A DNA stretch of 64,000 nucleotides. Source: Candidatus Levyibacteriota bacterium. GTDB lineage: Bacteria; Patescibacteriota; Microgenomatia; Levybacterales; UBA12049. Below the pieces are notes generated by a model that did no database searches, had not been told where the DNA came from, and saw only the letters and a program-made list of their open reading frames with translations. This document shows, one piece after another, positions 7,346 to 55,977 of this stretch. The translations under genes and the position numbers were made by a program. The DNA lies in the NCBI GenBank assembly GCA_018061075.1, contig JAGOUW010000001.1:167105-231104 (forward strand). The letters are read 5' to 3'. The first letter of the stretch is position 1; the number at the start of each line of letters is the position of its first letter.

Positions 7346-8041
7346 TTAGTGCTCTACATGATCGCCGGATGGAATGTGGCCTGATGTAAAAAACCTATCA
7401 ATTATATTTCCTCGATTTGGTTTTGGATAACGATCTGGATCATATCTTGGAATAGGGGGAGGATGAATCGCTCTGGTCGGATTTAGAAATGCACTGACAA
7501 TCGCATCTTGAACTAGCTCTGGTTCTTCATGCCAAGCTTCACCTCGAATAAATCTATTGCCAACAATGACTGATCCATCAGATCCTTGAGTGTGCGCAGT
7601 TATTTCATAGCAACCTGTTTCTGTAGGTAGATCGGCTGTTTGCGTTCTAAAAAAATGTAGGATTGCAGACGTGTCATGAGTAGAATGGTTAATTCTCAAG
7701 CTAGCAAAATCTTTCTCAGTTAGACCATCTTTTATATCTTGTAGTCCTTGAATGACTCCACTTTCCTGAAGAATTTGTAATTCTTTTACTCTTTTTTCTT
7801 GCGCCTCTTTTTCCTTGATCCTTTGTGCTTCAAGTTCTCTTTGTTGTTCAGCTTGAACTGCTTGCTGTCTAGCAAGCTCTTGTGCTCTTATTGAATCTAA
7901 GTGTTCTGCCTGCGCACTGTTTATGCGTCCCCAAATCTCTGATGTTTGTCTATGTCTATTATCTTGAGCAGTAGACTCTTGAGTTCCTGTTGTGTCTTGC
8001 TTGTTTTTTCGTGGTCTAAATCTTTCTAAAAAACTTGACAT
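7346..8041 (-). CDS. Hypothetical protein (Q/E/R-rich coiled-coil N-half, globular C-half)
   Basis: 231 aa ORF with no recognisable family. It looks G+C-richer than its neighbours. TATAAT lies on the minus strand at 8056..8051, 9 nt from the ATG. Confidence 0.5.
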   Translation of the reverse strand: MSSFLERFRPRKNKQDTTGTQESTAQDNRHRQTSEIWGRINSAQAEHLDSIRAQELARQQAVQAEQQRELEAQRIKEKEAQEKRVKELQILQESGVIQGLQDIKDGLTEKDFASLRINHSTHDTSAILHFFRTQTADLPTETGCYEITAHTQGSDGSVIVGNRFIRGEAWHEEPELVQDAIVSAFLNPTRAIHPPPIPRYDPDRYPKPNRGNIIDRFFTSGHIPSGDHVEH

Positions 8042-8145
8042 ATGCCCTATATTATACAGCTACAATGCAAATCAGAGAGGTATAAATAGAAAAAAACAGA
8101 TATCGACAATTCTTTTTATGGAATTCGCTGTATGACTATAAAGCC

Positions 8146-9336
8146 TTATAGGGCGAAGAAGAGGAGAGCTCCTACTATGAATAGTAGTCCGCCGATTGCA
8201 CCGATTCCGAATAAAGTTTGCGTAGGTCCAGTTGGAGCAATTGTCGCATCGCCACTGTCTACTGTCGTTACTGTTCCGTCTCCATCAGAGACTGTAACTG
8301 TTACTGCGCAAGACGAACTATCGCTACTTACATCTCCGCTGTCATCAGTCATAAGAGCTGAAGCTGTAAAGCTATTTGCATTATTATATGTGAATGATTT
8401 TTGGACATTTACTGTGTCGGTACCAATTCCACCACCCGTAGTTACATCCTCAACTGTTCCATCACCGAAGCTAAATGTGACCTTACTTATGGTTCCATCT
8501 GTATCAGATCCAGTTGCGGTAAATGTAATAGAGAGAGGCGCTGTTCCATCTGGGCTTCTATCTGTTATTAGGCTTTCGCAGACTGGAGCTTGGTTGGTGG
8601 AAGGAGCTGCACCCTCTCCCGAAGTTGTTGAAGTTGGGGTTGGCGTTAAGGTAGGTGTGGCAGCTGAAGTGATGGTTGGTGTTAGAGCGCCCGTAATTGT
8701 TGGGGTTAAGGTCGCATTTGGATCTGGGGTTACGTCTGGATCCCCTTGAATAGTAAGCGTAGCTGGAGTTCCGTTAAGGAATACATTTTCATTAAATGCA
8801 TCTTGGTTAGCTCCATTAATTGAGCGAATTTGAACTTGCTGATCATCAAATGAGATTTCAGTTGGGGGATCTGCTACGTCTAGCGTATCGAAGCTAATAG
8901 TTCCAATTTTAACGTCAGCTCTAATTACTTTTGTTGGGTCATTTTCTACTGAGAGAATAACTGACATGCTGTCTCCTTCATCTCCAATTATTGGCCCTTC
9001 GAGAATCGACAGATTTGAAGCTGGATTTAGCTTAAAATATTCTGTTTCTGTAGAAAGTTTTGTAGCATCAAATTTAATAACAAGCTTTACGAAGTTAACC
9101 TGGTTATTTCCAGGAGAGATCCAGATATCAAAATCTATTTTTTCTCCAACTGCTGCTGTTTTATCAGGAGGTACAAAAGAAAGAGTGGTATTAGGATTAG
9201 CTTGGCTTTGGAGATTTTGTTGTTGCTGAACTAAAAATACTGTGACTGGGATTACTAAAAGAATCACCAGTAAAAATCCTAATAAAAGGAGTTTCTTTTT
9301 TGAAAATGTTGGTTTACTAAGACCTATACTTGGCAA
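8146..9336 (-). CDS. Surface protein with cohesin-like and PKD-like domains and a C-terminal IAPTG sorting-like signal
   Basis: Signal anchor. Cohesin-like IDFDIWISPGNNQVNFVKLVIKFD. T/P linker. PKD-like ITFTATGSDTDGTISKVTFSFGDGT. IAPTG (nt 8227..8241) followed by a hydrophobic C-terminus. Apparent TTG start. Confidence 0.6.
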   Translation of the reverse strand: MPSIGLSKPTFSKKKLLLLGFLLVILLVIPVTVFLVQQQQNLQSQANPNTTLSFVPPDKTAAVGEKIDFDIWISPGNNQVNFVKLVIKFDATKLSTETEYFKLNPASNLSILEGPIIGDEGDSMSVILSVENDPTKVIRADVKIGTISFDTLDVADPPTEISFDDQQVQIRSINGANQDAFNENVFLNGTPATLTIQGDPDVTPDPNATLTPTITGALTPTITSAATPTLTPTPTSTTSGEGAAPSTNQAPVCESLITDRSPDGTAPLSITFTATGSDTDGTISKVTFSFGDGTVEDVTTGGGIGTDTVNVQKSFTYNNANSFTASALMTDDSGDVSSDSSSCAVTVTVSDGDGTVTTVDSGDATIAPTGPTQTLFGIGAIGGLLFIVGALLFFAL

Positions 9337-9426
9337 GGTAACTTAATCGTATATCAAGAATGAATTATGTGTCAACCCTACGTGCCTCAGGGTAAACCCC
9401 GATAGCCTCAGAAAAGATCTAGACTC

Positions 9427-9455
9427 TTGACGTTTTAGGTTTGGTTTTGTAAAAT
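9427..9455 (+). promoter_or_regulatory. Putative sigma70 promoter of groES-groEL
   Basis: TTGACG (9427..9432), 17 nt, TAAAAT (9450..9455), about 25 nt upstream of groES. No CIRCE-like TTAGCA...TGCTAA in this region. Confidence 0.5.
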
Positions 9456-9479
9456 GGCAGACTATACCACAGAGTGATT

Positions 9480-11409
<1,930 letters not shown>

Positions 11410-11410
11410 A

Positions 11411-21932: not shown

Positions 21933-23018
21933 ATGATTAGATTAGAAGGAGATTCAAGGGGAATATCTTCAGCGCAAATTAGACATCCCGATAGGGGAAT
22001 ATTAGCTCCTAATCACATATCAAGTCTCATTTTAATTGCGCAAGGAAATACTTATCCTGAGGTGGCAAAATTAAGAGGAGTTAGCGTTCAACAGATTAAA
22101 AATGTAGCTAATGAATTGAGAGGCAGGCTGGGTGTGTCAACTATGCCGGAGGCTATAGAAAGAGCGGCAGATTTAGGAGTTATAGATCTTAGAGCGATGG
22201 TTAGTTCAGGTTTTGACCCATCTGTATTTAGTTCTTTTGGAGAAAGTGACAGAGTGGTTATTGATGGAATTTCTAAAGGGAAACCCTATAAAGAAATTAG
22301 CGCCGAGCTAGGTGTTTCAGAGAGTATGGTAAAAAATAGAGCTGCTTCAATAGCTAAGCTTATTGGTGCAAAAGGATCATCTCATATGGCAACACATTTT
22401 TTTTTCGCAAAGCAAGTGAAAAAAGAAGAAGCTATTGTTCGGGGAGAGGACCCCTCCCGGGTAGATGTTTTTGGTCCATTGCAAGAAGTGTCCCACGCTA
22501 AGAAAGGTTTAATCGAGATAGATAAAAAGTTGTCTCCGAGAGAAAAGAGTGCGCTTGAGCTAGCTGGTAAAGGCTTCTCAGAAAAGGGTATCGGGGGTAT
22601 TTTGGGGCTTTCTAAGAATACAGTTAAGCAATATCTTGCTCACGCAAGAGCAAGGTTTGGAGTTGGTACTACAAGAGGTCTTCTCGTTGAAGCAATAAAC
22701 TTAGGAATGATAAACGTAGAGTTTGCTATTTCTCAAGGTATCGAGGCGGAGGCTTTGGGTGAATTAGATATGGCTGAAAGAAAAATTCTATCCAGCTTAA
22801 TGATAGACAAGCCAATGGTAGACTTGGTTAAGGAGCTTGGTATGTCTTATTCAGATTTTGATAAAGCTTTAATAATTGTTTTGGGGAAAATTAAAGCTTT
22901 AAATCCTGCCCAAGCAGTAGTTATGTTACTTAAGATTAAAAAAGAAGGTTATATTGAAGATGGTAAATTCGAGGGATTTACTTTTAATCATCACGTAAAG
23001 GTAAATGAGGTTGCTTAA
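21933..23018 (+). CDS. Protein made of four tandem LuxR/GerE-type HTH domains
   Basis: Four repeats of the GerE pattern, e.g. GNTYPEVAKLRGVSVQQIKNVANELRGRLGV, GKPYKEISAELGVSESMVKNRAASIAKLIG, GFSEKGIGGILGLSKNTVKQYLAHARARFGV and a degenerate fourth. No receiver or sensor domain. Confidence 0.65.
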   Translation: MIRLEGDSRGISSAQIRHPDRGILAPNHISSLILIAQGNTYPEVAKLRGVSVQQIKNVANELRGRLGVSTMPEAIERAADLGVIDLRAMVSSGFDPSVFSSFGESDRVVIDGISKGKPYKEISAELGVSESMVKNRAASIAKLIGAKGSSHMATHFFFAKQVKKEEAIVRGEDPSRVDVFGPLQEVSHAKKGLIEIDKKLSPREKSALELAGKGFSEKGIGGILGLSKNTVKQYLAHARARFGVGTTRGLLVEAINLGMINVEFAISQGIEAEALGELDMAERKILSSLMIDKPMVDLVKELGMSYSDFDKALIIVLGKIKALNPAQAVVMLLKIKKEGYIEDGKFEGFTFNHHVKVNEVA

Positions 23019-29963: not shown

Positions 29964-30845
29964 ATGGCAAAAGATTATTATCAAATTTTAGGAGTAACAA
30001 AAGGTGCAAGTGAGACAGATATAAAAAAGGCATACAGAAAGCTTGCGCTTGAGCATCATCCTGATAGAAATAAAGGAGATAAAACGTCAGAGGAGAAGTT
30101 TAAGGAAGTAACTAAGGCATACGAAGTTTTGTCAGATCCAGCAAAAAGACAATCTTATGATCAATTTGGTCATGCTGCTTTTGAGCAGGGAGCAGGTCAA
30201 CAGGGACCATTTGGAGGTGGTGGAAATCCATTCTCAGGCGGTGGACCATTCTCATACACATATACTACGGGTGGAAATGCTGGGGGTTTTGACTTTGGTG
30301 GAGGAGCAGATCCATTTGAAATATTTGAGCAATTCTTCGGAGGTGGAAATCCATTTGGTAGGCAGCAAAGAAGACCCGTATATTCTCTTCAGATAGATTT
30401 TATGGACGCTGTTAAAGGGGTTACGAAAAGAATAACAGTTGAGGGAAAAACCGAGACTGTAAAAATCCCCGCAGGAATAGACAATGGGCAGCGTGTGAGA
30501 TTTGGGACTTACGATGTTCTAATTGAAGTCAGATCGGATAAGAGGTTTAGGAGAGAAGGACAAAATGTGGTAACTGAGGAGGAGATTTCATTCCCGCAAG
30601 CGGCACTTGGAGTTGAAATAGATGTTGAGACAGTGGACGGTAATGTTAAGCTAAGAATTCCTTCAGGAACTCAGCCAAATACTGTAATTAGGCTTGCACA
30701 AAGAGGGATACCAAGTGTAAACGGAAGAGGAAAAGGTGATCATTATGTGCAGGTAAAAGTGGTGGTGCCTAAAAGTTTGTCAGCACACCAGAAAGAATTA
30801 TTAAAAGAATTTGATAGTACCAAGAAAAAATCCGGGTGGTTTTAG
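29964..30845 (+). CDS. dnaJ: J-domain co-chaperone, type II (DnaJ/CbpA-like, no zinc-finger domain)
   Basis: DYYQILGV...HHPDRN (HPD), a G/F-rich region and C-terminal substrate-binding domains. The protein contains no cysteine, so there is no CxxCxGxG. Confidence 0.85.
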
Positions 30846-31426
30846 CGTTCTTTAGTTGGTGGTCTTCCTTCCATTCCTATTCTTGCGAGGTACGTTTCTC
30901 TTTCTAAGATAGCAGCCCTTAAAACTGTTTCCCTCGGCATTAAAAATAATGGATAGTCAGTTGTTCCATCGACCATAAGTGACTGATCAAATGTTTGTCC
31001 ATCTCCAAGCACTTCAGTCTGTACTCCATATACTGAACTCCCGCCACTTTGAAGAACAACAGATGAAAGGTGTGCTTCTTTTCTCCATGCTAGTTCTGGT
31101 CCTACTTCTCCCTCTACTAATTCCCAATTTCTAATAAATTTTCTTGCTTCCTCATCAATTTTCCAAATAATGCCATTAATTCTAGGGCCTCTTTCAGGAA
31201 TAGCTACGTAGGTTCTGAAATCAGGCCCCCATGCTTCTTCTAAAATTCTCCTAGGATTAGTCGGTATCTGATCTAGTCTTTGTATTTCCAGACGATGATC
31301 CATTAGAACTGCAGGTTTGCCTTTTAGATCACTTCTACCTGTAATTGCCTCCATCATAGCTGGATCAGCATTGGCCCCGTATCCAAAATAGTAAATAAAT
31401 GCTGTATTCATTTTTGTATGTGGCAT
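30842..31426 (-). CDS. Gamma-glutamylcyclotransferase/AIG2-like fold protein
   Basis: The N-terminal [14 protein letters not shown] resembles the GGCT YFAYGSN motif. It looks G+C-richer than its neighbours. Its stop overlaps the dnaJ stop (convergent, 4 nt). Confidence 0.45.
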
Positions 31427-31515
31427 TAAACATCAAATCCTTACAAAAAGCAAATAATTTAATACATATTGCAATTTTCAAGCTTTGGATTATATAATCT
31501 GCTCCTGCTCTATGT

Positions 31516-32817
31516 ATGGCTGAACGAATTGGGGTAGGGGTTAGAGGTGCAGGAACAGTAGGTGGAGGAGTAATCCGAGAGCTTATAAAAAATGGTCCCG
31601 ATTGGGGACTTGAACTTCGAGGTGTAGCAGTTAATAATCCTGCAAATCCAAATAGAGAGTTTGATGGTCCACATTACACAACTTCAAGTCAGCTTTTGGA
31701 AGATCCAAATATTAAAATAATAGTTGAGGCTACAGGTGGAGTTATTCCGGCTATTTCTGCTGCGTTTATGACGGATGCTATGGGTGCTGGTAAAAGCGTA
31801 GTTACTCCTGCAAAAGCGCCTGTTGCGTTATATCCGGATCAGCTGTTTGAAGCTGCCAGACAAAATAATGTGGATTTTCAATTTGAAGGCACAGTTGGGG
31901 GTGGAATTCCTGTGGTAAATACTCTAAGAAGAAGAACAAATGTCGATCGTGTAATGGGAATAACGGGAATAGTTAACGGGACTACAAATCATATCTTGAC
32001 GCAAATGAGAGACAGAGGAATGAGCTTCGAAGATGCGTTAGCTGAAGCGCAAGCTGCTGGATATGCTGAAGCTGATCCTACCTCTGACATTGAGGGACAG
32101 GATGCTGCTTTTAAGCTCGCGATTCTTTTTATGCTAGGCTTTAACTCAATTGTGAATCCATTGACAATTGAGAGGAAAGGGATATCTGATGTCACAGCTG
32201 CAGATTTGCATTTTGCAAATAATTATGTAGGAGACGGTAACACGACACACGACATAAAACTTCTAGCAATTGCCAAAAGAAGAGATGACGGACTTTTTGA
32301 GGCAAGAGTCACTCCAGCAATTATAAGAAGGGATAATCCCTTAGCATCAGTAAATGGCGTATTTAATGGGGTAAAAGTAGACTGGGAGCTTGCAGATTCA
32401 CAGATGTATACTGGTCGTGGTGCAGGAAGAGACGCTACAACCAGCGCAGTCCTGGAAGATATTAGAACTGCTGCTGTAAATTTAGGAAAAGGACCTGATG
32501 ACTTGCCAACTTTAGACGGACAAGCGGAATTAGAAGAGCCTGAAGATATTCAGAGAGCAGGATATATAAGAATGCTTTTAGCTCACAAACCTATGAGCGC
32601 TGGAGAAGCATATATGATTATGGGTGAAAGTGGATTGAATATTACCGATATTCAGCAGGAAAGGCAGTTTAAGACAGTAGTTAATGGAGAGCCACATATA
32701 CCAGATATTGTTGTTTTTGAACCAGCCAGACAAGAAGTTATACAGTCTGCACTAGAGGATTTGTCATTTAGCGATCGAGTCGAAGGTACTCCTGTTTTTA
32801 TTCCATTCGAAGGATAG
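31516..32817 (+). CDS. hom: Homoserine dehydrogenase
   Basis: GVGVRGAGTVGGGV, NGTTNHILTQM and EADPTSDIEGQDAAFKLAIL, plus a C-terminal ACT-like region. TTGCAA-18 nt-TATAAT (31469..31498) lies upstream. Confidence 0.85.
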   Translation: MAERIGVGVRGAGTVGGGVIRELIKNGPDWGLELRGVAVNNPANPNREFDGPHYTTSSQLLEDPNIKIIVEATGGVIPAISAAFMTDAMGAGKSVVTPAKAPVALYPDQLFEAARQNNVDFQFEGTVGGGIPVVNTLRRRTNVDRVMGITGIVNGTTNHILTQMRDRGMSFEDALAEAQAAGYAEADPTSDIEGQDAAFKLAILFMLGFNSIVNPLTIERKGISDVTAADLHFANNYVGDGNTTHDIKLLAIAKRRDDGLFEARVTPAIIRRDNPLASVNGVFNGVKVDWELADSQMYTGRGAGRDATTSAVLEDIRTAAVNLGKGPDDLPTLDGQAELEEPEDIQRAGYIRMLLAHKPMSAGEAYMIMGESGLNITDIQQERQFKTVVNGEPHIPDIVVFEPARQEVIQSALEDLSFSDRVEGTPVFIPFEG

Positions 32818-34732: not shown

Positions 34733-35794
34733 ATGTTAAAGCCATTTTTTGACCCTCTAAAAACTTACGAAGAAAATTATAAAAAAGGCCCCTTTGGAGA
34801 ATTCGCAAATAAAAAAGTTTATAAAGAAAAAGGTGCACCGGATCATTATTTATTTGGTCTTCCAATTTTTACTCCTTTTGGAATTCCAGCAGGTCCACTT
34901 TTAAATTCTAAATATGTAAACGCAGCCTTAGATAAAGGATTTGATCTTGTGGAATATAAAACTGTTAGAACTAAATTCCGCTTATCAAATGAATGGCCAA
35001 ATGTTCTGGCTGTAAAAGTTAAAGGAAATTTAACATTAGAGATGGCAGAAAAAGGAGTTATTGGAAATCAGAAATATGGAAATCCACTAGCAGTAACAAA
35101 TTCTTTTGGAGTTCCATCGATGGATCCAGAAGTTTGGCAAAAAGATTTAGCAAAAAGTGTTAAGCATGCAAAAAAAGGACAAGCTGTGATTGGAAGCTTC
35201 CAGGGAACGACTGAAGGAGATGTGAATAAATTTATTAAAGATTATGCTCTTGCTGCTAAATTGGTAAAAAAAACTGGAGTAAAAGTAATGGAGGTAAATT
35301 TATCTTGTCCAAATGAAGGATCTTCCCACTTAGTTTGCTTTGATGTTCCAAGGACGGTGGAGATAGTGGAAGCTATTAAAAATGAAATCGGAAATACGCC
35401 TTTAATTATTAAAATTGCATATTTTGAAGATCAGAAAAACTTAGAGAAATTAATTAAGTCCGTTGGAAAAATAGTTCAAGGAATTTCTGCGATAAATACA
35501 ATTCCTGCTAAAGTTTATAAAGAAAATGGTGAGCAGGCGTTGCCGGGGGGACCAATGAGATTAAAATCTGGAACATGCGGGCACCCTATTAAATGGGCGG
35601 GACTGGAAATGACAGAAAGACTTTTTAATCTAAGAAATGAGCTTGGATTTAATTTTAAAATTATTGGTGTGGGTGGCGTAACCCAAGCGAACGAATATTT
35701 TGAATATAGATCAAAAGGAGCAGATGCTGTGATGAGTGCGACTGGAGCCATGTGGAATCCACTTCTAGCCCAAGAAATAAAAAGTTTAATTTGA
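34733..35794 (+). CDS. pyrD: Dihydroorotate dehydrogenase-like flavoenzyme
   Basis: EVNLSCPN motif, GVGGV near the C-terminus, TIM-barrel DHOD/DHPD family pattern. Confidence 0.7.
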   Translation: MLKPFFDPLKTYEENYKKGPFGEFANKKVYKEKGAPDHYLFGLPIFTPFGIPAGPLLNSKYVNAALDKGFDLVEYKTVRTKFRLSNEWPNVLAVKVKGNLTLEMAEKGVIGNQKYGNPLAVTNSFGVPSMDPEVWQKDLAKSVKHAKKGQAVIGSFQGTTEGDVNKFIKDYALAAKLVKKTGVKVMEVNLSCPNEGSSHLVCFDVPRTVEIVEAIKNEIGNTPLIIKIAYFEDQKNLEKLIKSVGKIVQGISAINTIPAKVYKENGEQALPGGPMRLKSGTCGHPIKWAGLEMTERLFNLRNELGFNFKIIGVGGVTQANEYFEYRSKGADAVMSATGAMWNPLLAQEIKSLI

Positions 35795-35819
35795 TATTTA
35801 ATATCTAGATAAGTATAAT
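35791..35819 (+). promoter_or_regulatory. Putative sigma70 promoter with leaderless geometry for ORF 35826
   Basis: TTGATA (35791..35796), 17 nt, TATAAT (35814..35819), then 6 nt and ATG 35826. Confidence 0.4.
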
Positions 35820-35825
35820 CTCGCA

Positions 35826-36773
35826 ATGGCAGTAGAATTACCAGATAAACGGGGCGATGAATTTAGAGTTCCTCAGAGAACAGAAGCACCAGCTTATGCA
35901 GCTGCATTTACTTCTCATGCGGATTGGTTTGGATCTTTCATAGCTAATACCGATCAGAAAGTTGTACAGAGAATTACGCTTCTTGATGGGTTGCAGAGGT
36001 TTCAGGGTGTTTGGGATAAGGCAATAGATCCCGCGCAGGATTTTAGAGTTTTACTTTTAGGAGCTGGAAGAGGCGATTCGGAATTAGCAGCACTTAGTCA
36101 ATTAAAAGAATTAAGAGGTGACATGAGTAAGGTAAGTATTTTAGTAGAGGAGCCATCAGCGCAGATGCAAGGAGAATTATTAACTTCTGCTCAGGAAAGA
36201 GGTTTTGGGGCAAATATAAAAGGAATAGAAGGCAAGGAATTTGAAGATCCGACATATGTTCCTCCAGGCGTTGATTTAGCAGTAGGATTTCAGATGTGGC
36301 AATATGTAAAAGGATGGGAGGGTGTACCTGCAGTAGACAATTCTTTAGAAAAACTAAGAGCAACCGTTGCTGAGAGAGGTGGAGCTTCAGTTATTTCCGT
36401 AATGTCCCAAACAAGTGATAACTTTGCTTTAAGATCTAAGTATCTTCCAGTTATCCATGGAGAAGGAACGACAGAAACTACGGCAGAAATGATTTCAGAT
36501 CAACTTTATGCTCCCGATTTAGAAACACCCCACGATATCATAATTACCCCATCAACTTTAAATGTTAGCTCCGTGTTTCCAGATGGTCGTTTTGATCCAA
36601 CTCCAGAAGGTGCAAATATACTATCTTTTATATTAAGAGCTGACTGGAATGTTTTACCAGACGGTCTTAAAGTGCAAGTGGCGCAAGATTTAGAATATCT
36701 TGTAAGAAGAAATGATGGATATAGACTATCTTTTAGAGATGCTTACGTCTGGCTTCCTGGTATAGACAATTAA
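35826..36773 (+). CDS. Class I SAM-dependent methyltransferase-like protein (histamine-N-methyltransferase-like layout)
   Basis: FRVLLLGAGRGDSELAALSQL (motif I-like), then VEEPSAQM. The overall order resembles the HNMT family. It looks G+C-richer than its neighbours. Confidence 0.4.
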   Translation: MAVELPDKRGDEFRVPQRTEAPAYAAAFTSHADWFGSFIANTDQKVVQRITLLDGLQRFQGVWDKAIDPAQDFRVLLLGAGRGDSELAALSQLKELRGDMSKVSILVEEPSAQMQGELLTSAQERGFGANIKGIEGKEFEDPTYVPPGVDLAVGFQMWQYVKGWEGVPAVDNSLEKLRATVAERGGASVISVMSQTSDNFALRSKYLPVIHGEGTTETTAEMISDQLYAPDLETPHDIIITPSTLNVSSVFPDGRFDPTPEGANILSFILRADWNVLPDGLKVQVAQDLEYLVRRNDGYRLSFRDAYVWLPGIDN

Positions 36774-36811
36774 GTTTGTAATTTTGGCCTCAAGTTCCTA
36801 TACTTATATTA

Positions 36812-42278: not shown

Positions 42279-43289
42279 ATGGATATTCAAAGACTTAGAG
42301 AAATTTTTGACCGAGAAAGCAGTTTTGCGATTGTTGTTGGTCATGATTACACAATTGATGAAATGGGAGCTTCTCTTTCGCTTTATTTAACACTTTCCTC
42401 GCTTGGAAAAGACGTATCTGTTATTTCAACAAAGCAGCCTTTAGTAGAGGTTTCAAATCTTGTTGGAATTGACAGGGTTAAATCTGGATACGAATCAAAA
42501 AATGGAGACTTAGTAGTTTCTTTCCCATATCAGGGAGATGAAATTGGAAAAGTTTCATACACTCTTGAAGCTGGATTTTTAAATATTATCGTAAAACCTA
42601 AAGAAAACGCTCTTTCTTTTGGTGAAAAAGACGTTCTATTTAGAAGAAGTGGAGAAGTGCCTCGTGTACTTATCGCTGTTGGAGTTAAAAGACTTTCTGA
42701 ATTATCATCTATATTCAACATAGAAGCTCTTAAAGATACAACTATTATTAATATTGATAAAGCAGGAAATAATGAAGGATTTGGAGATATAGTTATGATT
42801 GGTCAGTCTGCTTCAAGTGTTTCTGAGCAAGTTACTAATGTAATGTTAACTCTTGCATACCCAATTGATCCTGATGTTGCACAAAACTTACTTAGTGGAA
42901 TTGTATATGCAACAGGAGATTTCCAAAGCTCTATGACAAGTTCTCTAGCATTTGAAATGGCTGGAATTTTACTTAGAAGCGGAGCAGTTAGGGAAGGAAT
43001 GGCACCGGTTTCAAGACAGGTTAGAAGACCAGTTGCACCAATTGCACCTATTACTCAAGCACCAACACAGCCAGTAAATAATTTCGTAGATGATGTAATG
43101 CCAAACCCTTCACTACAGCAAGTTGTTTCACAAAGACAAGCTAGAGCTACATCTCAAGCAAGATCAAACCAGGCACCATTTGATAGTACTTCTTCACAAA
43201 GCGAATTCCCAAGTGAACAGAAAAAAGATGATGCTCCACCTGATTGGTTAGCACCTAAAATCTATAAAGGCTCAACTAATGTTGAGTAA
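42279..43289 (+). CDS. DHH-family (NrnA-like) protein with degenerate catalytic motifs and a disordered tail
   Basis: FAIVVGHDYTIDEMGAS (motif I-like), INIDKAGNN where DHH is expected, and LLSGIVYATGDF (motif IV-like). The DHHA1 region is replaced by a P/Q/S-rich tail. Confidence 0.6.
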   Translation: MDIQRLREIFDRESSFAIVVGHDYTIDEMGASLSLYLTLSSLGKDVSVISTKQPLVEVSNLVGIDRVKSGYESKNGDLVVSFPYQGDEIGKVSYTLEAGFLNIIVKPKENALSFGEKDVLFRRSGEVPRVLIAVGVKRLSELSSIFNIEALKDTTIINIDKAGNNEGFGDIVMIGQSASSVSEQVTNVMLTLAYPIDPDVAQNLLSGIVYATGDFQSSMTSSLAFEMAGILLRSGAVREGMAPVSRQVRRPVAPIAPITQAPTQPVNNFVDDVMPNPSLQQVVSQRQARATSQARSNQAPFDSTSSQSEFPSEQKKDDAPPDWLAPKIYKGSTNVE

Positions 43290-47893: not shown

Positions 47894-49549
47894 ATGGATA
47901 ATACTTTAAAATACATTCCTCTTGGAGGAGTCACAGGTGTAACTAAGAACATGCATCTTTATGAATATAATGATCAGGTTCTTATTGTGGATTGTGGCCT
48001 TGGTTTTGCGGACGAAACGATGATAGGTGTGGATCTCATGCTTCCTGATGTTTCATATTTCCAAAAAAATCCAAATAAAAAAATCATAGGAATTGCGATA
48101 ACTCATGGCCATGAAGATCATCTTGGGGCACTTCCTTATGTTCTTCCTCAGCTCCAGGGAAATTTTAATATCTACGCAACGCCTCTAACTGCAGGGTTTA
48201 TTAATGGAAAATTAAAAGAATTTGGAATAAATAAAAAAGCCATAAGTGTTAATTTTGATAAAGATATTTTACTCGGAAATTTCATGTTGTCGTTTATCAG
48301 AGTGACGCATTCAGTGCCAGATACGTCAAATATTTTTATCAAAACTCCTGTTGGAAATATTTATCATGGTTCAGATTTTAAATTTGATATGACTCCATAT
48401 GATGGAAAGAAAAGTGACTTTGCGAAGATTGTAAGAAAAGCAGATGAAGGAATAATGTGCCTTATGTCTGACTGTCTTGGGTCAGAAAGATCCGGATTTA
48501 CTGAGACTGAGATTGGGATTGGAAATAAATTATTTGAGGAAATGAGAAATACTCAGGGCAAATTTATTCTCACTACTTATTCTTCAAATATTGCCAGACT
48601 AAATCAGGTGGTGGATGCTGCAAGAACATTAAATAGAAGAATCTGTTTCGTTGGCCGTTCACTTCTAAAAGCTAAAGATATAGCGACAGAGCTCGGTTAC
48701 ATGAAGATCGATAAAAACATGGAAATTGAGCTCAAAGACATCAGAAATTATAACAATAAGCAAATTGTTTTAGTTGTAGCGGGAAGTCAGGGTCAGGAAA
48801 ATTCTGCATTATCAAGAATTGCCAGAGGAGATCATAGAGACATCGTAATTAACTCTAAGGACACTGTCGCATTTTCTTCTGATGCAATTCCAGGAAATGA
48901 GGTAGCAGTAAATTCATTAATTGACGATCTCGCAAAATCTGGCGCTAGAGTTTTATATTCTGATGTAGCTCACGGTCTTCACGTTTCAGGTCACGGCCCT
49001 CAGGGAGATTTATCTCTTATGATGAGTCTAGTGCGTCCTAAAAAAGTTCTTCCAATTGGCGGAGGATATAAGCATATGATTGCATATAAATCTTTGGCAA
49101 TTAAAAATGGATTTTTAGAAAAAGATGTTTTGCTTCCTGATGACGGACAAGAAGTAATTTTTACTAAGACTGACGCAAAGCTTGGTAAAAAGATATCTCT
49201 TCAAAATGTGTATGTAGATCAAGTTTCAGGAGAAGAAGTGGATACTTTTGTGTTACGTGACCGAGAAAAGATTTCTAAAGAAGGAGTAGTTATAGTGCTT
49301 GCAGAAATTGATACTTTTGGAGGACTTGTCGACAAACCAAATATTATTGTTAGAGGTTTTTCAGGTGCTGAGGTAAATGAATTAATTAACGGTTTATCAT
49401 CAGAAATTAGTATGAATTTAAAACCTAAGAAAACAAAAATTAATGACTGGAATTATCTAAGACGAAATATAGGAAATATTTCTGAAAGATACTTATTAAA
49501 AAAGCTCAAGCGTCGTCCCCTCGTTCTACCGGTTGTGATAGAAGTTTAA
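47894..49549 (+). CDS. rnj: Ribonuclease J
   Basis: Metallo-beta-lactamase ITHGHEDHLGALPY, a beta-CASP region, HVSGHG, and a C-terminal domain. Confidence 0.9.
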   Translation: MDNTLKYIPLGGVTGVTKNMHLYEYNDQVLIVDCGLGFADETMIGVDLMLPDVSYFQKNPNKKIIGIAITHGHEDHLGALPYVLPQLQGNFNIYATPLTAGFINGKLKEFGINKKAISVNFDKDILLGNFMLSFIRVTHSVPDTSNIFIKTPVGNIYHGSDFKFDMTPYDGKKSDFAKIVRKADEGIMCLMSDCLGSERSGFTETEIGIGNKLFEEMRNTQGKFILTTYSSNIARLNQVVDAARTLNRRICFVGRSLLKAKDIATELGYMKIDKNMEIELKDIRNYNNKQIVLVVAGSQGQENSALSRIARGDHRDIVINSKDTVAFSSDAIPGNEVAVNSLIDDLAKSGARVLYSDVAHGLHVSGHGPQGDLSLMMSLVRPKKVLPIGGGYKHMIAYKSLAIKNGFLEKDVLLPDDGQEVIFTKTDAKLGKKISLQNVYVDQVSGEEVDTFVLRDREKISKEGVVIVLAEIDTFGGLVDKPNIIVRGFSGAEVNELINGLSSEISMNLKPKKTKINDWNYLRRNIGNISERYLLKKLKRRPLVLPVVIEV

Positions 49550-49561
49550 GTCAACTATAAT
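49533..49561 (+). promoter_or_regulatory. Putative sigma70 promoter with leaderless geometry for ORF 49570
   Basis: TTGTGA (49533..49538), 17 nt, TATAAT (49556..49561), then 8 nt and ATG 49570. It lies within the 3' end of rnj. Confidence 0.4.
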
Positions 49562-49569: not shown

Positions 49570-50106
49570 ATGGAAAGACCAGTTTCACGACCTGATGCTA
49601 TTCAATATGACCCTTCATTTGCAGCTAGATTTCACTCTGATGCAAGAAAGATGGATAGAAAGTTTAGATTTTCAGATGCTGTAGGTTTGCAAGGAGTAGA
49701 TCAACAAACGCTTGTGATGTATCTAGGACTAAGACAGTTAAGGGAAGAAGCATTTTTAGCAAATAATCTTGGATTCCATGGTTTACGAGGATTTATAAAT
49801 CCCACCATTCACTATATTCATAGGCTTCAGGGAGTGAGAAATCCATATCAAGCTGCAAGAGATAGTTATGAAGCTTCCTATAGTGCCCATATTGCCAATG
49901 AATATCCGGAGGAAGCAAGGCAAAGAGTTTATCCAATTCAAAGTAGTGTAAATGATTTAATTTTAAGATTTAGCGTTAGACACGAAATGAGAGCTTCACG
50001 AGGAGGAATCGCTTTTGATATGTGGGTTCCGCGAAGAGAAATAGTAGAGGAGTGGGGAAATCATTGGAGAGAAAGACTTTCTACTCAAAGAGAAGCGGGA
50101 TTGTAA
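49570..50106 (+). CDS. Hypothetical protein (R/E/A-rich, no TM)
   Basis: 178-aa ORF, no family recognised. It looks G+C-richer than its neighbours. Its 3' end overlaps the convergent ORF 50081..50563 by 26 nt. Confidence 0.45.
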   Translation: MERPVSRPDAIQYDPSFAARFHSDARKMDRKFRFSDAVGLQGVDQQTLVMYLGLRQLREEAFLANNLGFHGLRGFINPTIHYIHRLQGVRNPYQAARDSYEASYSAHIANEYPEEARQRVYPIQSSVNDLILRFSVRHEMRASRGGIAFDMWVPRREIVEEWGNHWRERLSTQREAGL

Positions 50107-50933: not shown

Positions 50934-51596
50934 TTAGCAGCTGAATTGTTTCATGCAGGCGGTTTTTGCGTCTCCAGAAAGTGAGTTGCAAATTGAACAT
51001 TCGGATGATGCAGCAGTACCGGTTGGAGCATTTGACGCTCCCTTCATGACTCCTTGCATCATTGCAGAAATATCTTGAAATTTAATATTAGTTGGAGGAG
51101 TGAATATGGTTGTGTCCGCTGTCCAATCAGAGCAGTCATACTCTGCATTTAAATTAGGGTCAAAGTATTTTTTTGAATCTTCGTTGTTAACATATTCATC
51201 AATAGACATTGTCATTTTCAACCCAGTGTTGTTTGGGAAATCACTTCCCCAAATATAATTTTCGTCTTCGTTCCTAACGACATAAATAGTAGAAGATTTG
51301 CCGTTAGTAGAGCTCGTTACTTCCGTCCTCATATTTTGTCCAGCGATATATGCTGTACCAGATGTCGAATTTCCGCTTTCGTCTGCATATGTGAAGGTAC
51401 ATTCCTGAGTTTTTCCTGATTTCAGAATGGAAGCTAAATTACTTTCTAAAGAAGTGGTCTCTTTTGATTCATCTGTTGCTACAGTTGCAGTAGGCTCGGA
51501 ATCGTTTTTATTCTGAGAGTAGAGGAAGACACCGACTGCCCCAGCAAGTATAACAACTGCGGCGATTATTCCAATAATTGCTTGTTTGTTTTGCAC
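50934..51596 (-). CDS. Membrane-anchored extracytoplasmic protein with a Cys-rich C-terminus
   Basis: 220 aa with an N-terminal TM anchor. Several Cys residues include CSICNSL...CMKQFSC at the end. Confidence 0.45.
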   Translation of the reverse strand: MQNKQAIIGIIAAVVILAGAVGVFLYSQNKNDSEPTATVATDESKETTSLESNLASILKSGKTQECTFTYADESGNSTSGTAYIAGQNMRTEVTSSTNGKSSTIYVVRNEDENYIWGSDFPNNTGLKMTMSIDEYVNNEDSKKYFDPNLNAEYDCSDWTADTTIFTPPTNIKFQDISAMMQGVMKGASNAPTGTAASSECSICNSLSGDAKTACMKQFSC

Positions 51597-51674
51597 ATGG
51601 GTATTGTATTCTTGAAGTAAAAAAATGTCAAGAATATTGCAATTATATTTTGAACCGTTAGAATTAGATAGTTA

Positions 51675-52352: not shown

Positions 52353-52952
52353 TTATTTTGATTCTAGGCTTTTCCAAAGAATACGACTTGCTATTGTGCG
52401 ATGTGGAGACCATAGTTTACTAATTTCTAAAAGTTTTTCTTTGTTTGGTTTTTCTTCAAGTTTATAAATTTTTATAATTGCGTTTTGTAGTCCTAAATCA
52501 CCAGCTGAAAAAATATCAGACCTACCTAAGGTAAACATTAAAAACATTTCTGCAGTCCACTGCCCCACTCCTTTTAATTTTATTAACTCCCCTATTACTT
52601 CTTCATCAGACATCGAATCAAGTTTTTTTAAGTCCAATTGTTTGTTAATTATCGCTTCTGCAATTCCTTTTATATATTTAATTTTGCTAAATGAAATTCC
52701 CGCTTCCCGGATTTTTTGGTCTGGAATTGTTAATAATTCTTTAGGATTTATTTTTTCGTTTTTAAATAATTTTTCAAATCTTCCAAAAATAGTATCTGCG
52801 GCTTTTATAGATAGTTGTTGACTTACAATCGATTCCACTAAGTCTATAAAATAGTCATCGGGTTTGATTTGTTTGGAAAGTTCAATCTTGATCGCAACTT
52901 TATATAAAATTGGATCTACTTTTTTAAAATGAATGAGTGCTTTATCTGTCAA
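52353..52952 (-). CDS. alkA: DNA-3-methyladenine glycosylase II (HhH-GPD, AlkA/Mag-like)
   Basis: LKGVGQWTAEMFLMFTLGRSDIFSAGDLGL, a helix-hairpin-helix plus a catalytic Asp. Confidence 0.8.
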   Translation of the reverse strand: MTDKALIHFKKVDPILYKVAIKIELSKQIKPDDYFIDLVESIVSQQLSIKAADTIFGRFEKLFKNEKINPKELLTIPDQKIREAGISFSKIKYIKGIAEAIINKQLDLKKLDSMSDEEVIGELIKLKGVGQWTAEMFLMFTLGRSDIFSAGDLGLQNAIIKIYKLEEKPNKEKLLEISKLWSPHRTIASRILWKSLESK

Positions 52953-54231
52953 TTAATTTATAACCTCTTGTTTTAATTGTAACAATTTCATAATTTTTAT
53001 CATGATCTTTAAGTTTGTTCCTAACTCTAGCTACTAATCTGTCAATTGCCCAGTCAGTAACTCCAAGAGATTCTGCTTCCGGCCAGACAGCTTCTATTAT
53101 CTCTTCCCTTTCACAAATTTCATTTTTATTTTCTTCCAGAAATTTTAAAAGTAAATTTTCTTTTTTAGAAAAATCAGTATTATTTTTTTCTTTTCTTTTT
53201 TCCTCAGCTTTTGATTTTATAAATAAATCAAAAATTGGGTTAAATATTTTAAAAGTTTTTAAATCAAAAAATCCTGTATTTATTAAATATTCCCCTTCTT
53301 TAATTTCACTTTCCGTTAATTTTTTTTCTGACTCTATTTTAAGTAGTATGTCTTGTTCTGATGAAGACAAGCTCTCCCAAAGTTCTTCTGATTGAAGAGA
53401 AATTCTTTCATCGTTTTTCAGAAAATCAAATAGTTCGTTGGGCTTTATATTTCCATTTTCTTTTAGTGAAATTAATGCAAACTGTAAATATTGAGTATGT
53501 CCATCAACAAGCTTTAATAACTCTGTAATCATTTCTTCGGAAAGTTTTAAATCATATTGCTTGATACTCGATTCAAAAACTGTTTTTATGTCAGATTTTT
53601 TATTTGGTTTTATGTACAGGTTGTCAGAAAAAATTAATAAAGATTGCTTGGTAAAAATAGTAGGCTCTAAATGGTTTAAAGGCCGGGCACTTGTAAAAAC
53701 ATAAGATAGTCGGTTGTGAGTAGATTCGATTAACCCCTGAAAATTTGCGAAGAAATCATGAGTAATAGAATCTTTCATTCGATCAAATCTTAAGAAAAAT
53801 ATAGTAGGGAGATAACCTTCGTCACATAGAAGCACCAAGCTTTTTCTTAAATAATCTATTGTTAAGAAAAGATCTTGTGACTGGATACTATCCAAAAAAT
53901 ATAACGCAATTTGTTTCTTTATTCTCTGCGGTAAATCAGAATCTTCGATAGCATCTGCCAGTCTTTTAAAAGTTAAAATCCAAAAAGGATAAATTTCTCT
54001 TTCTACCAAATCATTTAAATCGACTGGAATAATTATGTATTTTTTATCGTCTAAATATTTTTTAGTAATCCCGTTATGATTCAAAAAGAATCTAAGAAAA
54101 TTACTAATTCCAACTCTAAGCATTCCAGTGAGCACAACGGATCTTCTATTTATAATATGGGTTCCAAGGTTTTTAGCGTCATCTTCACGGAAGTTAATTG
54201 GATAAGTTTGTTCAATTAGGTTGGGATTCAT
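52942..54231 (-). CDS. OmpR/PhoB-type winged-helix regulator fused to an N-terminal degenerate P-loop (AAA/STAND-like) domain
   Basis: The C-terminal REEIIEAVWPE...AIDRLVARVRNKL...IVTIKTRGYKLI matches trans_reg_C. The N-terminal VVLTGMLRVGISN is Walker-A-like with K replaced by I, and IFFLRFD is Walker-B-like. Overlaps alkA by 11 nt. Confidence 0.6.
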   Translation of the reverse strand: MNPNLIEQTYPINFREDDAKNLGTHIINRRSVVLTGMLRVGISNFLRFFLNHNGITKKYLDDKKYIIIPVDLNDLVEREIYPFWILTFKRLADAIEDSDLPQRIKKQIALYFLDSIQSQDLFLTIDYLRKSLVLLCDEGYLPTIFFLRFDRMKDSITHDFFANFQGLIESTHNRLSYVFTSARPLNHLEPTIFTKQSLLIFSDNLYIKPNKKSDIKTVFESSIKQYDLKLSEEMITELLKLVDGHTQYLQFALISLKENGNIKPNELFDFLKNDERISLQSEELWESLSSSEQDILLKIESEKKLTESEIKEGEYLINTGFFDLKTFKIFNPIFDLFIKSKAEEKRKEKNNTDFSKKENLLLKFLEENKNEICEREEIIEAVWPEAESLGVTDWAIDRLVARVRNKLKDHDKNYEIVTIKTRGYKLIDR

Positions 54232-54276
54232 GGTGACATTTTAATTGTTTAAAAGCACATAAGCAAACAGATTTTT

Positions 54277-54299
54277 TGTCAGGAAAGTGTCAGGAAAAG
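54277..54299. promoter_or_regulatory. Tandem direct repeat TGTCAGGAAA(G) x2 in the divergent intergenic region
   Basis: tgtcaggaaag (54277..54287) followed directly by tgtcaggaaaag (54288..54299). On the minus strand each copy reads TTCCTGACA, which contains a -35-like CTGACA. Confidence 0.4.
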
Positions 54300-54348
54300 A
54301 TCGGAAAAAAATCAAGCCAGCATTTTAAATCTAGTTTATTATGGTGCA

Positions 54349-54642
54349 ATGGTAAGTGAAGTAAGACAAGCACCAGCGAACGCAAAAGATTTTAGCGCAA
54401 CGCGTTCTGGAATAAGAAAATTAGGCACTCTCGTTCCGACAAGTGAAGTTAGTCCAACTGGTAGTTTGATGCGAAGAACTTTAAGATTTGTTCCGCATGA
54501 AGCGCCACCCGTACCAGAACTTAGAGCTGGAAGCGGAATTGGCCAAGCAGGACCTGGAATTGGAGAACCTGCACCAGTCGGAGCGCAATCCTTCGCACCT
54601 GTTCCAGTTTTTGAAGCCCCATTAGGAGAACAAAGGATTTAA
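54349..54642 (+). CDS. Hypothetical low-complexity ORF, in frame with the downstream GlpX-like ORF
   Basis: 97 aa, P/G/A-rich. It ends in TAA at 54640..54642 and lies in the same reading frame as ATG 54646. TATTAT at 54337..54342 is 6 nt upstream of the ATG. Confidence 0.3.
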   Translation: MVSEVRQAPANAKDFSATRSGIRKLGTLVPTSEVSPTGSLMRRTLRFVPHEAPPVPELRAGSGIGQAGPGIGEPAPVGAQSFAPVPVFEAPLGEQRI

Positions 54643-54645
54643 TTT

Positions 54646-55977
54646 ATGCCTCCAGAAACCAGCGCCGGCAAGGGCGCTACTTCCATTGGTCCTGTTGCTG
54701 TTAGAAAACCAGATGGAAGCATGCATGTTCGAATCGATAGACCCAGACCCACTCCTGCTTACACAAACGGTCATGCTCAAGAAGTGACACCTGAATTTGT
54801 TGATCGAACACCAAAGTTAAGCGTGGAAACAGTAGTTCCCTTCTATCAAGTTGCAGCTGCGAGAACTGCTGTTGGTGTAGACAGCGCAAATAGAGAAAGA
54901 TACAGAAGACGTCCAATCTCAGAAAGATTAAGAGAGCAGTTTGAGGTAGATTTGGATGTTAGGGCAACTCCAGCGCTTGAAGCAAATATACATCAGGCAC
55001 CTTTTGTTTCAAATGTCGTACGAATTGAGCGAGCAAAAGAATTATGGAAATATGGAAGGCAGCTCCCAAACATTGAAGGTCCATATGGATTTGGAGAATT
55101 AATAGCGATTCAAGATAGGAGATTATTGGATGGTGCAGGATTTTTAGCATTGGGAAGAGCAAATCTAGTATTGGATCCAATTGAAAGGACAAAAGAGGCA
55201 TCAAGGCCTTCATACGCATTAGAAGAAGCAAGAAGAGGAAAAGGATCAACGGTTCAGATTGCAGGAGCGGTAAATCAGGAGCTAGGAGAAATGCCAACTG
55301 AAGAACAAGGTGCGTATTATGCTGATGGAATTACAGTAGGTCCGCGAGTTGCAGAGTTCATTAGAAGCCACGATGCGCAAGGTTTATTGGATAGGCCTAC
55401 TAAAGAATTAATAAGGCTTATATTAGAAGCACATAGATCAAATGATCCTAGAATAATTACGGCAGTTGTTTTAAGTAGAGAGAGAAATGCCAGGAAAATG
55501 GCAGAACTGGAAGCGCTTGGAGTGAATGTTCAAGCGATTCCTGACGGTGATTTAACTCATATGCTTGATGTAGCGACCCTACATGATTCAAGGAAACCTA
55601 AGATTGTAGTTGGAAGCGGTGGAAAGGAAGAAGGTGCTGCTGGAGCATTTGGATTAAAAACACAAAGAGCATATGCAGAAAGAAAATATGTTGGTAAGCA
55701 AGGAGAATTAGTTCCAGGAATTTCTCGAACTTTAACTATTGATCAAGTTGCGCCAGGAAATCCAGATAGTTATTTTGTAGTTTTTGCCTCAATCAATGGA
55801 GTTCCTGAATTGGGAATGGATGGAGTCACGAGGGCAATGATCCAAAGACCACATGACCCTGAGCCGAGGTCTACAAGGGGATCTGACTATAGAGTACAGG
55901 TAGGCTCAGTTACAAGTAGAGATCGCCATATTAGAAAAGATCTAATTCCCGTAACTAGAAATCGTTTGCACCACTAG
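54646..55977 (+). CDS. Divergent GlpX-like (class II fructose-1,6-bisphosphatase family) protein with an N-terminal extension
   Basis: LVLDPIERT (compare VDPIEGT), TAVVLSRERNARKMAELEALGVNVQAIPDGDL (compare ...KPRH...GVRV..IPDGDV), VGSGGKEEGA (compare GIGGAPEG), and FVVFASINGV. The first 100 aa or so are unassignable. Confidence 0.5.
   Translation: MPPETSAGKGATSIGPVAVRKPDGSMHVRIDRPRPTPAYTNGHAQEVTPEFVDRTPKLSVETVVPFYQVAAARTAVGVDSANRERYRRRPISERLREQFEVDLDVRATPALEANIHQAPFVSNVVRIERAKELWKYGRQLPNIEGPYGFGELIAIQDRRLLDGAGFLALGRANLVLDPIERTKEASRPSYALEEARRGKGSTVQIAGAVNQELGEMPTEEQGAYYADGITVGPRVAEFIRSHDAQGLLDRPTKELIRLILEAHRSNDPRIITAVVLSRERNARKMAELEALGVNVQAIPDGDLTHMLDVATLHDSRKPKIVVGSGGKEEGAAGAFGLKTQRAYAERKYVGKQGELVPGISRTLTIDQVAPGNPDSYFVVFASINGVPELGMDGVTRAMIQRPHDPEPRSTRGSDYRVQVGSVTSRDRHIRKDLIPVTRNRLHH

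Follow-up and report, generated by a model that had tools for sequence, protein, structure and literature searches.

Are single genes that look richer in G+C than the housekeeping genes around them foreign DNA in an AT-rich, reduced bacterial genome? We addressed this question in a 64-kb stretch of a Candidatus Levyibacteriota bacterium (contig JAGOUW010000001.1, positions 167,105 to 231,104; hereafter, the window), which belongs to the Levybacteria within the candidate phyla radiation (CPR/Patescibacteria). The window has 36.1% G+C and a dense array of housekeeping genes (MurJ, LepA, GroEL, PyrE/PyrF-like, MetRS, HrcA-GrpE-DnaK, GlmS, DnaJ, ClpB-like, NusA, IF2, PNPase, RNase J and FtsK). A first-pass annotation had marked seven stretches as G+C-richer by eye, and had ascribed them to piecemeal acquisition from higher-GC donors or to a distinct expression class. 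We conclude, with a probability of about 0.65, that the eight genes in these stretches are genuine flexible genes of low-G+C Levybacteria whose composition is intrinsic to their proteins, and that they are not foreign patches.

All seven stretches matched open reading frames (ORFs), but 54349..55977 consisted of two same-frame ORFs split by a TAA codon. The flagged set therefore comprised eight ORFs, picked by composition, and the 50 other ORFs of the window served as background. Below, GC1, GC2 and GC3 denote the G+C fraction at codon positions 1, 2 and 3, GARP the content of Gly+Ala+Arg+Pro, FYMINK that of Phe+Tyr+Met+Ile+Asn+Lys, and R/(R+K) the Arg share of Arg plus Lys. The eight ORFs were as follows.

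7346..8041, minus strand: orphan ORF of 231 aa, N-terminal half Q/E/R-rich (G+C 0.397, GC3 0.216, R/(R+K) 0.69)
21933..23018, plus strand: protein of 361 aa with four tandem LuxR/GerE-type helix-turn-helix (HTH) modules, the fourth degenerate; called 4xLuxR (G+C 0.387, R/(R+K) 0.37)
30842..31426, minus strand: GGCT-like candidate of 194 aa (G+C 0.400, GC3 0.236, R/(R+K) 0.71)
31516..32817, plus strand: homoserine dehydrogenase Hom, 433 aa (G+C 0.421, GC3 0.256, GARP 0.323, R/(R+K) 0.68)
35826..36773, plus strand: predicted histamine N-methyltransferase (HNMT)-like class I S-adenosylmethionine (SAM)-dependent methyltransferase, 315 aa (G+C 0.401, GC3 0.228, R/(R+K) 0.62)
49570..50106, plus strand: orphan ORF of 178 aa with 23 Arg and 2 Lys, downstream of RNase J (G+C 0.387, GC3 0.212, R/(R+K) 0.92)
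54349..54642, plus strand: small P/G/A-rich ORF of 97 aa, ending in TAA (GARP 0.44, G+C 0.469, GC3 0.214)
54646..55977, plus strand: distant relative of class II fructose-bisphosphatase (GlpX), 443 aa (G+C 0.426, GC3 0.241, GARP 0.359, R/(R+K) 0.75)

The G+C excess seen by eye was real but modest. The flagged ORFs had a G+C content of 0.387-0.469 (mean 0.411) versus 0.355 ± 0.029 in the others (Mann-Whitney U test [MWU], p=1.7e-6, on a set itself chosen by composition), and equally rich core genes had gone unflagged, namely 8146-9336 (0.413), DnaJ (0.410) and 50934-51596 (0.397); FtsK (0.392), PNPase (0.390), and GroEL and DnaK (about 0.387) were similarly rich. The excess lay wholly at codon positions 1 and 2 (GC1, 0.558 versus 0.463; GC2, 0.440 versus 0.350), whereas GC3 was, if anything, lower in the flagged genes (0.235 versus 0.251, p=0.2). 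The products had the distinct amino-acid style that had been noted by eye: GARP was 0.27-0.44 versus 0.21 and FYMINK 0.19-0.29 versus 0.32, with Arg (2.2-fold enriched) replacing Lys (0.49-fold). Because Arg replaces Lys and Ala, Gly and Pro are abundant, G+C rises at codon positions 1 and 2; the raised G+C is a by-product of the encoded Arg/Ala/Gly/Pro-rich proteins.

It might be asked whether these genes form a class at all, since unrelated proteins that happen to be G/A/R/P-rich could have been picked by eye from the upper tail of the window. GARP over the window ORFs was continuous and unimodal, a one-component Gaussian fitting as well as two (Bayesian information criterion, -159.7 versus -158.1). 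Core genes of equal G+C were overlooked, and the eight proteins represent eight unrelated families. For comparison we used 80 Levybacteria loci in the DnaJ neighbourhood, four informative ones near LepA and, for the GlpX-like region, the sister contigs L002, L004 and L007; all window proteins were mapped onto the sister loci for presence, absence and synteny. In the 80 other loci, the link of Arg/GARP-richness to rarity was not significant at the family level (17 of 218 rare versus 0 of 14 common families, p=0.61). On the other hand, R/(R+K) was separated by a gap, being 0.62-0.92 in seven of the eight flagged ORFs (0.37 in the 4xLuxR protein) and at most 0.53 in the 50 others (mean 0.31; p=4e-5). 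Furthermore, within 10 kb of DnaJ the four flagged genes all fell among the 10 window genes that were rare in the 80 loci, and none among the nine widespread ones (Fisher p about 0.09). In three comparisons with sisters, the flagged genes also showed lower conservation than the genes next to them (p=0.013-0.2). A chance pick is thus a doubtful explanation of the set.

The proposal of higher-GC donors was not upheld at the synonymous sites. A leave-one-out synonymous-codon likelihood, conditioned on the amino acids, gave z-scores of -2.1 to +1.65 for the flagged genes (standard deviation of the non-flagged genes, 1.7; MWU p=0.18). Observed minus expected GC3 was -0.018, 66% of Arg codons were AGA, matching the rest of the window, and the dinucleotide relative-abundance distance (delta*) did not differ (p=0.22; length-corrected, 0.46). 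Because GC3 and codon usage were within the normal spread of the window, as was the dinucleotide signature, the idea of higher-GC donors fails by the first refuting criterion that the first-pass annotation had set for it. By GC3, codon usage and oligonucleotide signature, the flagged genes did not stand out from the 64-kb background as a horizontally acquired island.

The same sites bear on the suggestion of a distinct expression class, according to which the genes would have promoters of their own or unusual expression levels, and selection on expression would have shaped their sequence. Synonymous sites, where expression level chiefly acts, do not differ here, and the codon bias of the flagged genes was average, strong bias being found instead in PNPase, 42279-43289, ClpB and NusA. 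Three strong promoter-like sites were found upstream of flagged genes.

31469..31498, plus strand: promoter-like site TTGCAA-18-TATAAT upstream of Hom (10/12 matches)
35791..35819, plus strand: promoter-like site TTGATA-17-TATAAT in the insertion that carries the HNMT-like gene (11/12 matches), ending 7 nt before the ATG
49533..49561, plus strand: promoter-like site TTGTGA-17-TATAAT (10/12 matches), its end 9 nt ahead of the 49570 ATG

These sites speak for separate expression, and they bear out in part the statement that most of the genes carry their own -10 box; however, the overall number of promoter-like sites equalled the shuffled expectation (55 versus 53.8, 21 versus 23.3 and 4 versus 7.0). 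We consider an expression class very improbable. Since two of the sites end 7-9 nt ahead of the start codons, the transcripts of 35826 and 49570 may be leaderless or nearly so. As a separate observation, PNPase (43660-46140) and the upstream DHH/NrnA-like gene (42279-43289) had the lowest GC3 in the window (0.14-0.18, z about 4.6), and from this low GC3 in strongly biased genes the preferred codons of the host genome appear to be A/T-ending.

The HNMT-like gene allowed the composition of an incoming gene to be compared with that expected from donors of different GC3, because its junctions could be resolved.

35788..36777, no strand assigned: single-gene insertion of 990 bp, with the direct repeat AAGTTT at 35782-35787 and 36772-36777

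The insertion gives pyrD a new stop codon. An empty junction, AAGTTTGTAATTTTGGCCTCAAG, was common to L008, L011 and L013 (TAATTT for AAGTTT in L013), and pyrD there abuts the orthologue of 36812. Distances from concatenated core proteins gave the order ((window,L008),L011),L013, with identities to the window of 94%, 85% and 71%. Because these three loci keep the empty junction and the core distances nest the window with L008, the parsimonious account is that the gene would have entered by a single insertion on the terminal branch of the window, after the split from L008. The flanking genes differ from L008 by d4 = 0.22-0.47 at 4-fold sites. After so short a divergence, GC3 would be expected at 0.33-0.36, 0.41-0.47 or 0.49-0.58 for donors with a GC3 of 0.40, 0.55 or 0.70, respectively. 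The observed GC3 was 0.228 (binomial standard error about 0.024, 315 codons), below the expected values of at least 0.33, and a GC-rich donor for this gene is therefore excluded. In accord with this, the insertion was among the most native genes by dinucleotide signature (delta* 61).

The location of the flagged genes as singletons or pairs between core genes was confirmed by Pfam annotation and synteny. Five genes were absent from the same locus in relatives, namely 35826-36773, 30842-31426, 21933-23018, 7346-8041 and, in some of the sisters, Hom; no such absence was found for 49570-50106 or the 54349/54646 pair (four sister contigs). The GGCT-like candidate behaved as a single-gene indel between the DnaJ stop codon and the conserved Hom promoter, being present in the window, L008 (71% identity) and L009 (79%); L011 and L014 lacked it, and there the DnaJ stop codon adjoined the Hom promoter. 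The promoter boxes of Hom (TTGCA...TATAAT) were kept in L009, L011 and L014. Hom itself occupied the same locus in L009 and L011 (91%) and in L014 (68%) and was missing from L008 and L013, a distribution that would fit vertical descent with losses. In L013 and L015 the DUF2079 gene and MetRS had no 4xLuxR gene between them, and the slot in L014 held a LuxR-like ORF with 24% identity. The slot of 7346-8041 (window 7288-8145), between LepA and a PKD-domain surface protein, was also variable: it was empty in L095 (2033-2039) and L096 (5911-5920), and was occupied by an unrelated 179-aa Gly/Ala-rich ORF in L093 (7735-8274). Only four of the 10 rare genes within 10 kb of DnaJ belonged to the flagged set; gene flux is not limited to the G+C-rich genes.

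The first-pass annotation had also stated that no tRNA, integrase or flanking repeat marks these loci. There was no tRNA in the window, and neither the Pfam scans made nor the precomputed annotation for the sister contigs showed an integrase domain, but the insertion of 35826-36773 has its 6-bp direct repeat. PHROGs and PADLOC gave no phage or defence family match beyond a generic HTH for the 4xLuxR protein, five scans of viral contigs revealed no relatives, and a literature search on Levybacteria, horizontal gene transfer and GC content returned nothing relevant. Of the proposed piecemeal acquisition, single-gene gain and loss between conserved genes stands, but higher-GC donors are not supported.

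Two further origins were considered and rejected. A chimeric contig or binning contamination is contradicted by the native GC3, by the orthologues of six of the eight genes in the same context in independent sister metagenome-assembled genomes, and by the presence of two genes on Logan contigs. Overprinting or an alternative-frame origin would, in the +2 frame, enrich Cys and Ser, both of which are depleted, and the other frames would be expected to give high GC3.

In our preferred reading, the genes are gained and lost one at a time between conserved operons, as the sister alignments document, and at least one, the HNMT-like gene, arrived as a 990-bp cassette bearing a promoter-like site and joined through 6 bp of identity. 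The sources would probably be compositionally similar genomes, other Levybacteria or CPR bacteria, and no higher-GC host, and DNA that had been taken up would have been joined by illegitimate or microhomology recombination. The amino-acid style would belong to these protein families as such and be kept up in the lineage instead of eroding. In agreement with this, orthologues in the sister genomes keep a G+C of 0.39-0.42, a GC3 of 0.22-0.26 and a GARP of 0.30-0.34, even at 68% identity.

The principal alternative is an amelioration lag, in which old transfers from higher-GC donors have equilibrated at synonymous sites while the Arg/GARP-rich protein style lags behind. High GC1 and GC2 with low GC3 is what models predict for genes in transit (PMC2394748), and the R/(R+K) of 0.62-0.92 against 0.31 in the rest of the window points the same way. 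Among the non-flagged genes GARP climbs with conservation (rho 0.47-0.63), and the flagged genes break this trend, being GARP-rich yet less conserved. The confinement of the GlpX-like family to eight close homologues would be consistent with a single entry. Against a lag, substitution flux in this family, counted by parsimony on neighbour-joining trees, was balanced after 249 inferred changes, with 56 GARP losses versus 53 gains and 7 R>K versus 11 K>R exchanges. Composition was likewise unchanged in orthologues at 45-70% identity, and because R-K exchanges are among the easiest substitutions they should have equilibrated long before the proteins diverged by 35-55%. Among homologues with an available source name or context, no close one belonged to a high-GC taxon, and the HNMT-like gene, demonstrably a recent arrival, already has native GC3. 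Three-taxon polarisation of the GARP changes yielded too few events to use.

Hom illustrates both sides. Its own clade extends from 100% down to 46% identity, beyond which matches of about 40% are scattered over many phyla (Aenigmarchaeota, Methylomirabilota, Armatimonadota, Clostridia and others), and the homologue search gave no close high-GC relative. The GARP of the window protein (0.323) is typical of its family (0.310 ± 0.044), and its lineages nevertheless show a slight net loss of GARP and Arg, as a lag would predict. An amelioration lag may apply to Hom and to the HNMT-like gene; overall we regard it as unlikely.

Several points weigh against the reading of flexible genes with protein-intrinsic composition. 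The R/(R+K) of 0.62-0.92 would fit a high-GC proteome and lies in the top 4% or so of Levybacterial ORFs. In alignments of the orthologues, the conservation of Arg residues did not exceed the average (odds ratio 0.8-1.1), so the Arg richness is not accounted for by constraint at particular sites. Hom showed a mild net loss of GARP in the parsimony counts (157 losses versus 120 gains; R>K 19, K>R 12), and the window copy of the HNMT-like protein has a GARP of 0.286 versus a family median of about 0.23. Moreover, the 64-kb window alone stood in for the genome as compositional background, and the donor of any cassette was not identified. With these points taken into account, we hold the composition of the flagged genes to be mostly intrinsic and maintained.

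The HNMT-like protein gave no Pfam match, even at a relaxed E<=5, and no NCBIfam or PDB sequence match. Its AlphaFold2 (AF2) model had a predicted local distance difference test (pLDDT) score of 82 and a predicted template modelling (TM) score of 0.81, and the top five Foldseek matches in PDB were all human HNMT (E 2e-14, probability 1.00, TM 0.65-0.73). SAM motif I was present as LLGAGRGD, and the GxGxG glycines (G79, G81 and G83) were invariant in five homologues. The earlier guess of an HNMT-like methyltransferase was confirmed at the level of the model, which predicts a class I SAM methyltransferase of HNMT fold, Rossmann-like and with the HNMT-type substrate domain. With 276 representatives at E<=1e-3 the family is a small one, and the nearest relatives, at 34-40% identity, lie on contigs whose gene content is CPR-like by inspection. 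In three loci (L088 1161-2726, L089 894-2459 and L090 343-1908), distant homologues with 37% identity were located immediately upstream of a phosphoribosyltransferase gene. In the window (34733-36773) the gene directly follows pyrD, and a tie to pyrimidine or nucleotide metabolism is possible. The short intergenic region preceding the 36812-ClpB operon (36774-36811) reads GTAATTTTGGCCTCAAGTTCCTATACTTAGATTA, with TAT for TAG in the window; it was nearly invariant (L008 5317-5346, L011 10205-10234 and L013 15790-15856, the last with an extra 34-bp insert), although protein identity between the species is only 71%.

The identification of Hom was upheld by the domains PF00742 (172 bits) and PF03447 (49 bits) and by NF004976 (331 bits versus a cut-off of 205). 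Its neighbour 30842-31426 had no Pfam match (also at E<=5), no NCBIfam match and no PDB match with either the single sequence or a profile. An alignment by hhalign with human GGCT was weak (E=0.028, probability 1.8%), pairing YFGYGAN with YFAYGSN and covering GIIWKI, and the NCBI record names the product GGCT. The guess made by eye therefore has a motif-level alignment and the NCBI name on its side but no family match, and the product possibly has a gamma-glutamylcyclotransferase fold; this evidence is only suggestive. In the interval between DnaJ and ClpB, the CutA-like gene (window 32843-33696; L008 2359-3215; L011 7215-8071) was 40% identical to that of L008 and had no detectable match in L011, and LOG was 57% identical to that of L011, while the flanking genes in the same genomes were 80-97% identical. 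Such diverged genes amid well-conserved neighbours suggest allele replacement in this interval.

The first-pass guess for the 4xLuxR protein proved sound: PF00196 scored 60.2 bits (gathering score 23.5) and PF08281 63 bits, and the four tandem segments align with one another, with NCBIfam stretches at residues 22-75, 100-153 and 197-260. No relative of 7346-8041 was found in Pfam (also at E<=5), NCBIfam, PHROGs or PADLOC or on metagenome contigs, and its 90% cluster contained itself alone. The next gene, 8146-9336, encodes a predicted surface protein of 396 aa with hydrophobic segments at both termini and a T/P-rich linker as read from its sequence, and a weak PKD Pfam match. Its G+C of 0.413 is due to Thr/Pro/Ser/Asp/Gly, with an R/(R+K) of 0.18.

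The Arg-richest ORF, 49570-50106, had syntenic orthologues in L007 (78%), L002 (45%) and L004 (44%), against 79-92% for its neighbours. Pfam (also at E<=5), NCBIfam, PADLOC and PHROGs gave no match, and PDB only spurious Protein A repeats. In these three contigs the identities of this ORF (44-78%) and of the 54349/54646 pair (65-87%) were far below those of their neighbours (79-98%). L007, L004 and L002 kept the small ORF of the pair at the same place and in the same frame (93-108 aa, 27-60% identity), and relaxed Pfam (E<=5) and NCBIfam searches gave no family for it. It was always in the same frame as the GlpX-like gene, with TAA plus one codon between them. When the junctions were compared (window 54590-54690; L007 9945-10045; L004 9945-10045; L002 7668-7768), AGGATTTAATTTATG was invariant except in L004 (GGAATTT in the AGGATTT part), and ATTTAATTTATG was invariant in all four genomes. 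The AGGA at the end of the small ORF (three of four genomes) looks like an embedded Shine-Dalgarno sequence for translational coupling to the GlpX-like gene. Stop readthrough fusing 54349-54642 with 54646-55977 was considered and set aside, since AGGATTTAATTTATG is more simply read as a Shine-Dalgarno sequence with a coupled restart.

The kinship of the 54646-55977 product with GlpX was borne out at the Pfam level, with PF03320 at 44.7 bits (gathering score 27) over profile positions 97-221 of 307 only (about 40%). TIGR00330 scored 33.1 bits, far below its equivalog cut-off of 259.3, and PDB GlpX matched over about 90 residues (E 8e-6). The AF2 model, built from eight sequences, had a pLDDT of 31.7. 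The eight homologues found were 65-100% identical, and all were syntenic where the context was known. Upstream, 52353-54231 encodes an HhH-GPD glycosylase and a protein of 429 aa that has a Trans_reg_C domain at its C terminus; these are the most AT-rich genes of the window (G+C 0.29-0.30) and sharpen the visual contrast at 54349.

The 80 other loci contained 27 ORFs, in 17-19 families, that were both Arg-rich (R/(R+K) >=0.6) and GARP-rich (>=0.26). All were rare (<=7 of 80 loci) and native in GC3 (difference -0.004 ± 0.041), and seven of the 10 that were scanned had no Pfam family. The association of these ORFs with rarity (27 of 325 rare versus 0 of 550 common, p=1e-12) was discarded as pseudo-replicated, and a link across Levybacteria is a lead, not a result. 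Long Arg/GARP-rich ORFs (up to 725 and 1105 aa) were also seen at L014 15533-17710, L043 65-3382, L020 4378-6995 and L086 19895-20728; each was native in GC3, present in one of the 80 loci and without a Pfam match above the gathering score (for the 1105-aa ORF, a single sub-threshold match). A broader and improbable extension of our reading is that Levybacteria share a pool of Arg-rich, Gly/Ala/Pro-rich, mostly orphan proteins (about 8% of rare families in the 80 loci), which would pass among related low-GC genomes in the form of single-gene cassettes with promoters of their own, inserting at short identities; their style would be actively kept by selection, for example for a common cellular role in host or nucleic-acid interaction, and would not stem from a donor.

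Total G+C alone would mislabel the flagged genes as imports from a GC-rich host, a tempting conclusion for an episymbiotic CPR bacterium. The split by codon position, together with the sister genomes, reveals flux that is real at single-gene resolution and exchanged DNA that is compositionally native, which calls for care when islands are sought in AT-rich, reduced genomes. Further outcomes are a cleanly resolved CPR insertion junction, a predicted HNMT-like fold for a family without sequence-level annotation, and a clade-restricted pair of a small ORF and a GlpX-like gene. Patchy and fast-evolving as they are, the flagged proteins retain Arg over Lys at 36% G+C.

Two of the products can be compared with characterised proteins. 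HNMT is a class I SAM-dependent small-molecule N-methyltransferase. The window protein resembles it (PDB 1jqd, 2aou) in its predicted whole-chain fold (TM 0.65-0.73) and GxGxG SAM motif, but is only 16-17% identical, has no Pfam or NCBIfam match, and belongs to a bacterial (CPR) family of about 276 representatives. The GlpX-like protein aligns through its IPDGD and GSGGxxEG segments to residues 139-227 of GlpX (PDB 1ni9, 6ayu). It also contains DPIERT, which resembles the metal-binding DPIEGT-type motif of GlpX. In contrast to GlpX, it has 443 rather than about 335 aa, its N- and C-terminal thirds cannot be aligned, and it is always preceded by the putatively coupled P/G/A-rich ORF of 93-108 aa.

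The flagged proteins are parted from their neighbours along the GARP versus FYMINK axis of nucleotide-bias-driven amino-acid usage, reportedly described by Singer & Hickey in 2000 and by Muto & Osawa in 1987. As AT pressure would predict, GARP in the ordinary window genes rises with conservation; here, however, the axis varies within one genome, and the GARP/Arg-rich proteins are the less conserved ones. The genes share with classical genomic islands, as treated in the amelioration framework of Lawrence & Ochman, a deviant local total G+C and a position between core genes. They differ in that GC3, codon usage and dinucleotides are not deviant, in that a single gene rather than 10-200 kb is involved, and in that neither tRNA nor integrase is present. 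Genes that bacteria acquire laterally more often exceed the backbone in A+T.

The flagged genes also differ from flexible-gene islets, since they lack an integrase, tRNA or phage context and owe a G+C above that of the backbone solely to amino-acid usage. They are like such islets in being patchy in sister species, on the scale of single genes and between conserved operons, with native GC3 and codon usage despite recent arrival, and with a short direct repeat at one window junction. The native composition of flexible genes is attributed to exchange within a compositionally similar gene pool, for which the prophage case offers a comparison (PMC2394748).

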